Below are positions 25,342 through 28,300 of a stretch of DNA of 64,000 nucleotides, piece by piece. Numbering within the stretch: the first letter of the stretch is position 1; every line of letters begins with the position of its first letter. The DNA comes from Schmidtea nova (Eukaryota). The position numbers and the translations under genes are program-made. The stretch spans positions 250,604,001 through 250,668,000 of the forward strand of contig CM097883.1 of NCBI GenBank assembly GCA_044892505.1, given 5' to 3'. The notes below the pieces were generated by a model that was given only the letters and a program-made list of their open reading frames with translations, had not been told where the DNA came from and made no database searches.

Positions 25342-28300
25342 ATGAACATTATAACAAGTTTTGTGAACGAAAACCCAAGTGGAAAAGAAAATGGTAAATT
25401 TATTTTTTAATTTATTATCATTTAGTATTAATTTAGGTAATATCAATAATTCAATTGGGAAATCGATGTTAGAAAATGCGGAAGAAAATGTTACTTGATC
25501 ATTAACTTAATAAATTATTTAACTTTTACTTTAGGGGATGTAAATATGACTGAACAAACTACCATACAAGCTGAGATTGTTAATAATGAGAATATTATGA
25601 ATAATGGAGTTATACCTGATGTGGTATTGAATGTTCAATGTAAGTATTGATTAATTTTAATTAATTTTAATTATATTTTGATAATTATTTTAATCAATTT
25701 AGTAAATAACTTTAGTAAAATATTTGTAAATATATATTTTTGGTAATATTTTGTAATAATTTAAATAATCTTTACTTTACGTAAACAGTTAATTTAAACA
25801 AATTTTTTAAATATTATTTTGTAATAAGTTTTATATTAAATTTAAATTATTTTAATAATTATTATATTTAAATCATATTTATCTTAAATTTCATATTTAT
25901 TTTCTAATAATTCATATTTTTATTTATTTATTTTAATGATTTTTTGATAAATTTAAAGATATTTCATATTAAGGTAAATTTTATGCGAATTATTGTAAGT
26001 CGTCAAATCATAACGATTGCCACAAATTAATGGAGCGATACTATCGTATTATAAATAACCAAGTCACCTTCTATTTATGTCCCACATGTAAGAGCGCCCA
26101 ACATATAAATTACATTGATTTTTATTTCCAACATTATCTCCACTTAAATCAATTCTCATGTACTAAGAAAAGTCTTTTCACATTAATTAATAAAAGTAAA
26201 CGACGAAATGTTACTGTTTGTCCTAAACCGACTAAAATAATTGTAATATCCGATGATGAAGATGTCCATTCATCAAATGACGATGTTGTCCAATATGGCG
26301 GTTCTGTTGAACCTTTGGTTAAATATAATTTGAAAAAATCGCATGCCATTGTTAAAATGGATGTGGATTCTTTAAATTTAAATAAATTAATTATTCCTTC
26401 ACCTTTATTAAATAAATTTAATTCAGTTATTTCCAAAATGGGGTATGTAAAAGTTCAATTCTGCATTGATGTAGGATTTGAAAAGAATAAGCAATTTCAA
26501 TCTTTTATAATATCAAATTCCGCAAAACCAATGAGTGATACCTTTTTAGATGAAGGTATTGCTCTATTAAGTGAAAAAATGACTAAAGTCTGCGAAAATG
26601 GCAGCAATTGGTCAATAAATAAAATTAAGGAAATAAGCTTTAAACTTACAAAATATTCACAGATAAGTAGATTGAGCGGTAAAGGTTCTTGTTCAACTCC
26701 ACCATCATTAAAGGCAAAACGTTGCACTGTCAATGTTAAAAATACTGATAACTTGTGTTTAATATATAGCATCTTGGCTATTTTAAAATACGATGATGTA
26801 GATAGCAATCATCGAAATAGAGCATCTAATTATAATTCCTCAGACCTTGTGTTTGATTCTACTGATTTTCCAATGAAATTATGTAATATACCCAAATTTG
26901 AAACGAAAAACCCGGGGTTGGCAATAAATATCCTTTCATATGACGAGTATGATCTAAATAATATTAATGAGGAGGAGGAAGTCATGAAACATCCATTTGT
27001 AGATATTATTCATAGGTCAAAGGTTTTAGGTGGCATTCCAATTAATTTGATTTTGTTAGAGGAAAGTGACTCTTTTCATTATATTGCAGTTACCAACATT
27101 AATAGACTTTTAAATTGTGACACTCTTTCTGTTACTGATGTTTAAATAAGGTGCACGTGGTGCGAGCGTTGCTTGAATGGTTTTAGATTGACTGAAGCTT
27201 TTGAGAAACATCAGGCTTTATGCATAAAAAACCAGTTAGGTACAACTTTATACACTTTACCTTCAGATAAGAACTTGGAATTTAAAGATTGGTCAAAGAT
27301 TGTTACCCCTCCTTTCGTTGTATATGCCGATTTTGAGGCTGTTTTTCCGAAGGACGATAAGTATTTTCAACGCCACTTGCCTATTTCTGCTGGCTTGTTG
27401 CTTATTAATAACTTTACCGGCGAAAAATCGTATAAAAGCTTTTATGGTCTTAACTGTGTAGAAGAGTTTCTGACTGAAATCAATGATATAGGAGAAAAAG
27501 TAGTTTTACCTTACTTTATAAATAATTCCAAAAAGAAAATGGAATATCTTTCTCCTGCACAAATAAGATCATTTCGTAGTTCTACAATTTGTTATTTGTG
27601 TAATAAACCTTTGAAAAATCCGGTTAAAGATCATGACCATTATACAGGTAAATACTTGGGTGCAGCTTGCTCTAAATGCAATTTTTCCCGGCAAATAAGA
27701 TTCGTCATGCCAGTCATATTTCATAATTTACGCGGATATGATTTGCATCATATCCTCAAGTATGGTTTAAATAAATTCGATAAATGGGATATAAGTTGTA
27801 TTCCTACTACAAGTGAAAAGTTTTTGACTTTATATGCAAGAGTCGATAGTTTGACTATTAAATTTATCGATTCTTGCCAATTTGTAAGCTGTAGCTTAAA
27901 CGATGTTGTAAAGACTTTAACAGATTTTCCTCTTACTTCATCCAAATTTATAGGGACTATAGTTACTTCCAAAGGCATATTCCCATATAATTTTGCAACT
28001 TCTTTGGAGGTTTTACAAAATACATACGAGTTGCCACCGATTTGGGAAGGAGTTAATATCGACGAGTATGAAAAAGCTCAACAGATATGGGATGAATTTA
28101 ATTGTGAAACATGTTTGATTATATGATGCTATATCTGAAATTGGATGTTTTCTTACTTGCCGACTTTTTTCAGCAATTTAGGGCAAAATCCATTGCACAT
28201 AACCGACTTGAGCCTCTTAATTTCTTGGGAATTCCAGGCATGTCATGGAGTTCCGCTTTGATGACTTTGAATTCTCCTATCGAGTTGCTTCAAGATATGG

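Follow-up and report, generated by a model that had tools for sequence, protein, structure and literature searches.

Palindromic, polymerase-only Polintons in the Schmidtea nova genome: probable copy-back derivatives with a very likely spliced polymerase gene

The gene for a protein-primed DNA polymerase of family B (pPolB, PF03175) in a 64,000-nt window of the Schmidtea nova genome (GenBank assembly GCA_044892505.1, contig CM097883.1, positions 250,604,001 to 250,668,000) raises two questions: whether the gene is truly interrupted by spliceosomal introns, and what kind of element carries it. A preliminary description had proposed three short leader exons, a long fourth exon and a host-style promoter, and had left the choice between an intron-acquiring, host-transcribed lineage and a polymerase gene at an early stage of domestication. 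The features of the locus are collected in Table 1. The leader exons of 52, 54 and 105 nt and the introns of 43, 44 and 334 nt, all in phase 1, are present as proposed, as is the TT donor of intron 2. Exon 4 of the window copy carries the single stop (27143-27145) and the two frameshifts (near 28108-28126 and 28853-28869) that had been noted, leaving the downstream frame as four open stretches. The first in-frame methionine of exon 4 is at 26030, and the Cys/His-rich domain begins upstream of it. The host-style promoter is also borne out by the TATA box and the two inverted CCAAT boxes upstream of exon 1. The TATA box is kept in all 19 related loci, with similar motifs in other subfamilies, and a promoter of this Pol II type, which is expected for an element without an RNA polymerase of its own, is common to all subfamilies seen.

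What the window retains of a high-copy palindromic, polymerase-only Polinton family is one arm, in decayed form. The arm spans 23716-30453 and runs from a loop remnant through 144-bp repeats, whose copy number varies between arms and between elements, to the promoter, the putatively spliced gene and the right end. The left arm is missing and only the right end is retained; coverage by run contigs drops off to the left of ~23700. At the element termini (30410-30453 and 23735-23771 in the window), the first 35 nt are made up of short, exchangeable blocks whose combinations do not follow the body of the element; the two ends are alike within palindromes and often unlike within full-length parents. 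The window also contains copies of a two-ORF repeat family, which has no Pfam match, is present in multiple copies at 79–85% and in one case adjoins the right end of the element. Other transposon remnants lie at 14364-16842, 47729-48193, 54759-55256, 59380-62513 and 34403-35074; the types seen are hAT, mariner-type and LTR retrotransposon (protease, RT, RNase H, integrase), and one remnant ORF without a Pfam match is presumably RT/GIY-YIG-like, judging by its motif.

Table 1. Features of the pPolB arm and copies of the two-ORF repeat. Positions are those of the window unless a locus is named.
Feature	Position	Strand	Basis or remark
Remnant of the central palindrome loop, with a Polinton terminus-like end facing the arm	23716..23771	+	matches centre of intact palindromes
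144-bp tandem repeats, at least 6 units, in the loop-to-promoter interval	23815..24860	+	
Pol II-type promoter: inverted CCAAT boxes at 25207 and 25250, TATA box at 25285-25292	25207..25292	+	
pPolB leader exon 1, 52 nt, with start codon	25342..25393	+	
Predicted intron 1, 43 nt, GT-AG, phase 1	25394..25436	+	
Leader exon 2, 54 nt	25437..25490	+	
Predicted intron 2, 44 nt, phase 1; donor non-canonical (TT) in the window copy	25491..25534	+	
Leader exon 3, 105 nt; last base opens a Cys codon finished by exon 4	25535..25639	+	
Predicted intron 3, 334 nt, GT-AG, phase 1	25640..25973	+	
pPolB exon 4	25974..29704	+	PF03175
N-terminal Cys/His-rich domain, likely zinc-binding	25974..26155	+	conserved motif; folded region in model
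Predicted terminal-protein (TP) domain	26306..26662	+	structure model
Predicted vOTU cysteine protease domain	26699..27106	+	structure model
Right terminal region, Polinton terminus at 30453	29838..30453	+	end type of some full-length parents
Two-ORF repeat copy	13441-13923		
Two-ORF repeat copy	19294-19824		
Two-ORF repeat copy	19970-20584		
Two-ORF repeat copy	30690-31094		
Two-ORF repeat copy	L055:7689-9113		
Two-ORF repeat copy	L035:7843-8403		

That the arm belongs to a palindromic, non-autonomous family is as good as certain. Among its 39 best non-self matches, 22 fall into 11 head-to-head pairs, and inverted arms, either complete or with partial deletions, are also present at 13 of the 17 unpaired matches and absent at the other four; three additional pairs are likewise palindromes. 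The five elements that were read out are palindromes of 12.8–14.5 kb with arms 99.0–99.9% alike and the ends AGTAGG...CCTACT. Four of them are flanked by 6-bp target-site duplications (TSDs) and the fifth sits in a microsatellite. An exact 6-bp TSD is found in 30 of the 32 elements with both ends located and one with a single mismatch in the other two, a count that leaves out the loci at which one end was not found (E1, in the microsatellite, L071/72, L079/80, L085/86, L091/92, L099/100, L109/110, H7, F3-F8 and K1-K3). AG...CT termini with a 6-bp TSD are thus common to the palindromes and to the full-length parents described below. The identity of pPolB is 99.75–100% within the element in 12 of 13 elements, with a median of 97.1% between elements (78 pairs). 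The sole long ORF within the palindromes is pPolB exon 4, which reads outward on both arms. No integrase, capsid or ATPase gene was found inside the arms, either in the ORF lists of five elements or by tblastn of 20 loci, and no protease gene in the ORF lists of the same five; integrase and capsid matches lay outside the element ends or in nested insertions. Lacking these four genes, the family is classed as a non-autonomous derivative and not as an autonomous Polinton. The central loop of 391–408 bp is not palindromic. A Polinton-type terminus lies at each of its edges, the two pairing over ~45 bp, and mirrored flanks lie on both sides of this mini-element.

Exact motif counts across the genome give 1741 element ends and 870 palindrome-type splice acceptors. 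Divergent pairs number 25 among the first 100 of these 870 acceptors, compared with one among the first 100 of 149 parent-type acceptors, and half of the first 100 palindrome-type motifs lie outside close pairs. Eight further loci, chosen by end-motif position, are deleted, rearranged or nested forms, two of which enclose genes of another Polinton subfamily; element H2, with the same ends, encloses the integrase and capsid genes of another subfamily. A second palindrome family of 10–13 kb mirrors the left end and has no ORF of 130 aa or more (L051:4219 to L052:7099; L067). Its window-type promoter and leader exons face inward, ~1.19 kb apart, and 12 convergent pairs occur in the first 100 of 950. 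One TSD-flanked palindrome, L083/L084, has outer arms only 96–97% alike and two different end types, indicating a recombinant, and the make-up of the window arm is that of its left arm. Palindromes lie inside or adjoin full-length Polintons in at least five of 20 loci (L073/74, L085, L089, L103/104, L109), and one palindrome contains a full-length element (L201-L204). The acceptor motif is clustered at G000:C1:91.75-92.28 Mb, where about ten copies, most of them on the same strand, perhaps form a segmental array.

Four full-length elements of 14.5–15.3 kb with TSDs, found in the same genome, carry a TBP-like gene, an ATPase, a split integrase, a major capsid protein, a protease and pPolB. A further gene with no Pfam match is likely the minor capsid (penton) gene, named by its position and size. 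The domains recognised in these parents comprise an rve integrase, Peptidase_C5 (adenain protease) and Pox_A32 (A32-like packaging ATPase), and the capsid model (pLDDT 92.7) is a double jelly roll matching the capsids of iridovirus, PBCV-1 and virophage. The TATA-binding-protein-like gene of the full-length Polintons matches PF00352 with E values of 2e-16 and 3e-13 (L224:2926-3402 and L053:8735-9244); the adintovirus paper likewise mentions a TBP gene, in the legend to a figure. The right end of two parents is identical in type to the right end of the palindromes. Parent pPolB has a different leader from the window gene but shares its exon 4, and intron 3 of the window matches the long intron of the parents in its 3′ part and not in its 5′ part. 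The intron thus likely contains a recombination joint, which would make the palindrome gene a chimera. A motif combining integrase sequence with an intron donor has 10,441 exact matches in this AT-rich 1.25-Gb genome, which makes potential helpers plentiful; if most of these copies are full length, Polintons would take up more than a tenth of it.

A structure model of the first open stretch of exon 4 (pLDDT 80) shows a Cys/His domain and, after a disordered linker, a TP-like domain and an OTU domain. Model residues 111–229 match the little-finger fold of Y-family polymerases (Z 8.2, rmsd 2.6, 92 aligned), and residues 242–377 match OTU domains (Z 6.9, rmsd 3.3, 105 aligned). Both Z values are middling; the domain order and the folds match the TP-vOTU-Exo-Palm layout set out in a passage of an earlier study, which assigns the little-finger fold to the Polinton TP (10.1101/2024.03.18.585575). 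The predicted vOTU catalytic pair is conserved, with Cys261 invariant and His368 near-invariant among 22 relatives, and in structural comparison the N-terminal part is matched best by a protein of a Drosophila-associated adintovirus. These models suggest that a single gene likely supplies primer, processing protease and polymerase. The named database relatives come from oyster and insects, no relative was found in viral contigs, and a search for longer homologues returned one weak match. An Endonuclease VII-like Cys/His insertion (PF02945, window 27584-27685) in the exonuclease region is common to the database relatives. Of 42 arms sampled, 20 have an exon 4 that stays open over 1240 codons or more. 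The dN/dS values are 0.16–0.31 for pairs with dS above 0.04, a signal that is not assignable to the palindromes alone: the scoring covered open copies only, palindrome copies share 97.1% identity with a parent-type pPolB (L066), and the trees of the three gene thirds disagree, indicating a mosaic gene.

We favor a copy-back (snap-back) origin of the palindromes. One parental end is duplicated in inverted orientation, and each element has two like origins, a short loop and a short inverted repeat at the fold, as expected of copy-back products. Elements L209 and L210 have independent fold points at other short inverted sequences, which together with the left-end family indicates that fold-back recurs. 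The short inverted repeat may have come from a mini-Polinton, or from what was left of an end, upstream of pPolB. A strand begun at the right-end origin would then have crossed this mini-element, folded back on the repeat and copied itself, giving a product with two origins. Each displaced strand could snap into a hairpin and re-form a duplex origin, which would favor its replication. The pPolB gene would be transcribed by host Pol II and spliced, and the resulting TP-vOTU-polymerase would supply primer, protease and polymerase. Integration must come from a helper, since the 6-bp TSDs show integrase action and the palindromes encode no integrase; full-length Polintons of the same genome would provide it. 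The arms would be made alike before or at insertion and drift thereafter, and their likeness could also stem from chromosomal gene conversion. We infer both the splicing and the extrachromosomal hairpins from DNA sequence. As a whole, the observations are probably best explained by palindromic copy-back derivatives of Polintons that are integrated by helpers and whose pPolB is Pol II-transcribed and spliced.

The palindromes could instead be passive passengers that are replicated and integrated in trans, with pPolB refreshed by recombination, or they could stem from a single chromosomal rearrangement followed by gene conversion; we consider this unlikely. This reading would be in keeping with a parent-type pPolB that falls within the identity range of the palindromes, with the mosaic gene, with the spread of the non-coding palindrome family, with abundant helpers, as the integrase motif count suggests, and with the palindrome that has arms of two types (L083/L084). 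The palindrome-type acceptors nevertheless outnumber those of the nearest parent type, 870 to 149, and the promoter, the canonical splice sites and an often open 1250-codon exon are kept on both arms. The repeated, independent fold points at short inverted sequences also fit template switching. Use by the palindromes of their own polymerase is an evenly balanced proposition; the left-end family has spread with no long ORF, which means that palindromes can multiply without encoding a polymerase themselves.

With respect to the leader, comparison of DNA copies indicates that the exon–intron model is very likely real, and we hold with high confidence that the lineage is intron-bearing. GC content is 9–16% in the introns and ~30% in the exons, each exon is open in the expected frame and all junctions are in phase 1. 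Intron conservation among paralogues, which the preliminary description had proposed as a check, was assessed in 48 leaders of the same genome, collected with a 21-nt seed allowing at most three mismatches and not independent, as both arms of one element are counted. All 48 have canonical sequence at donors 1 and 3 and at acceptors 1 and 2; donor 2 is canonical in 46, and acceptor 3 in all 40 alignable copies. In a smaller set of 19 related loci, all splice sites are canonical except donor 2 in two, and when the depth of four contig runs from a single study is added up, nearly all of it has a canonical donor 2. Length changes in the leader exons comprise a 12-nt in-frame insertion (six copies) and one 2-nt loss, and a stop codon occurs in one of 144 leader exons. 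The variants show no amino-acid constraint (one synonymous and 13 non-synonymous in exon 3), which fits a disposable, low-complexity leader yet lends no support to the introns. For introns 1 and 2, no joint was present among the best 15 of 152 joints between the run contigs, which look DNA-derived, and positions 23500-25904; one loose contig end resembles what we take to be a tagmentation adapter. The suggested duplication of exons 1 and 2 finds no support above chance: the two have a 9-nt end in common and no further likeness, and 262 of 1000 shuffles score equally well (21 of 1000 when the introns are added). Introns 1 and 2, the only pair compared for introner-like similarity, are likewise no more alike than shuffles (358 of 1000).

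The intron-bearing character extends more widely than had been claimed. Five divergent pPolB subfamilies in the genome each have different phase-1 leader exons (52/54/105; 52/72/153; 52/117/87/165; 7/60/216 or 201; and 115 nt), and the final leader junction builds the same split Cys codon in all five; the last donor is non-canonical in one of six subfamily copies read. This Cys opens the motif C-x5/6-C-x4-H...C, which lies upstream of Met 26030. In the database protein P0004 and six metagenome relatives (L113-L116, L120 and L125), the motif M...C-x5/6-C-x4-H...C is contiguous and intron-free after the start. The parent Polinton integrase is split inside its QTDLG/KEF catalytic motif by a GT-AG intron of 40–44 nt in 11 of 11 copies of this genome and is contiguous at that point in metagenome Polintons such as L118, L176 and L188. 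A short intron apparently also follows the start codon of the protease gene in full-length Polintons. The metagenome pPolB relatives L111, L112, L120 and L125 have two to four short phase-1 introns, which in L111, L120 and L125 are AT-rich and lie further downstream, in L120 and L125 between the Cys/His and TP domains; tandemly duplicated exons do occur in L112. The introns of L111, L120 and L125 and the exon duplication of L112 indicate that the trait extends beyond the Schmidtea nova genome. The putative introns have GT-AG ends, keep the frame, are conserved across copies and, when removed, restore conserved residues, all of which points to spliceosomal introns. They may be tolerated because transcription is nuclear, and they would gather in a low-complexity leader or linker as symmetrical phase-1 exons.

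It is very improbable that the upstream exons are not spliced to the polymerase message and that the protein begins at or near Met 26030. The unconstrained leader is compatible with such a start, as are the finding of the window-type leader on derivatives that are non-coding and in fusion with a different gene (F1, F3), the several database gene calls that begin at the matching methionine (P0002, P0003) and the failure to find junction 3 anywhere in the genome as DNA lacking the intron. This start would, however, leave a conserved Cys/His motif upstream of the methionine with no start codon of its own, and in five subfamilies it is the junction that creates the first Cys which this motif otherwise lacks. 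The integrase core, moreover, is unreadable unless its 40–44-nt intron is removed.

That the palindromes are assembly artefacts from hairpin or chimeric long reads is still less credible: some arms are 100% identical over 3.6 kb, as an artefact would be, but each element lies between exact 6-bp TSDs in unique flanking sequence, stops, deletions and repeat numbers differ from arm to arm, other insertions are nested within palindromes, and the loop that they share is not palindromic. Early-stage domestication, the other outcome envisaged in the preliminary description, would agree with the host-type promoter and introns and is largely refuted by a window copy that is broken at four places, keeps its Polinton end and is one arm of a mobile family with hundreds of dispersed, TSD-flanked insertions.

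The elements share the TP-vOTU-Exo-Palm pPolB, the AG...CT ends and the 6-bp TSD with Polintons/Mavericks (adintoviruses, likely with Alpha-type pPolB). In contrast to their usual description as intronless, the core genes here appear to have short spliceosomal introns, and the derivative is one 6–7 kb inverted repeat with a single gene. Protein-primed amplification of phage phi29 reportedly gives rise to palindromic minigenomes (Esteban et al., 1997), and these and other copy-back genomes resemble the elements in that one genome end with its origin is duplicated in inverted orientation around a short loop, the fold lies at a short inverted sequence and the other genes are lost. Unlike them, the elements described here are integrated and heritable, are present in hundreds of copies and have, to judge by their reading frames, an apparently functional polymerase gene on both arms. 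Capsid-less replicons relying on the same TP-vOTU-pPolB fusion are known, but these are cytoplasmic, non-integrating and not palindromic.

According to a passage of PMC8097293, intact vertebrate Mavericks are intronless, in agreement with Kapitonov and Jurka 2006, and passages of nematode Polinton papers give terminal inverted repeats (TIRs) of 100–1500 bp. Butterfly Polintons, as presented in part of 10.1101/2025.02.07.637071, have gene-bearing 2-kb TIRs and so also duplicate core genes in inverted repeats; those elements are full-length with hexon and protease in the TIR, whereas here the whole element is the repeat, with pPolB only. Introns inside Polinton-like genomes are likewise reported in passages on dinoflagellate elements, which bear introners mostly read as post-integration insertions (10.1101/2025.03.18.643946), and on cryptophyte PLVs, which have self-splicing group I introns (PMC12220804). 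In contrast to these, the introns here are short, AT-rich and fixed across active subfamilies, in the integrase core and the pPolB leader. In the full-text literature, a scope that leaves Repbase and subscription papers aside, we found no description of fixed spliceosomal introns in Polinton core genes or of polymerase-only Polinton palindromes, and palindromes are not mentioned in the consulted passages of the nematode Polinton papers, a giant-transposon review and the adintovirus paper. Among 80 metagenome Polinton loci, two short terminal inverted matches were found, most contigs being too short to hold a palindrome. On balance, we lean toward regarding the family as a previously undescribed class, namely copy-back genomes, integrated and inherited, that derive from a transposon resembling a DNA virus and take the form of 13–14 kb hairpins that encode their own spliced primer-protease-polymerase, replicate by snap-back and parasitise the integrase of intron-bearing Polintons.

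A racket-like single-strand intermediate has been proposed for Polinton replication from sequence alone, as stated in a passage of PMC4196379. Hundreds of integrated fold-back products with like end origins are the footprint expected of protein-primed single-strand replication, and the palindromes and their loop structure, if correctly interpreted, would constitute genomic evidence for this proposed model. It becomes testable in that protein-capped hairpin DNA is expected where the family is active. On the same interpretation, the divergence between arms would date each insertion, as LTRs do. The fixed introns in the integrase core and the polymerase leader contradict the customary intronless picture of Polintons and show that a virus-like lineage has adapted to splicing in the host nucleus; ORF-based surveys would truncate or miss genes split in this way. 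The stability and size of the host genome may also be affected by the 13-kb palindromes, which number in the hundreds in a genome with about ten thousand copies of the Polinton integrase.
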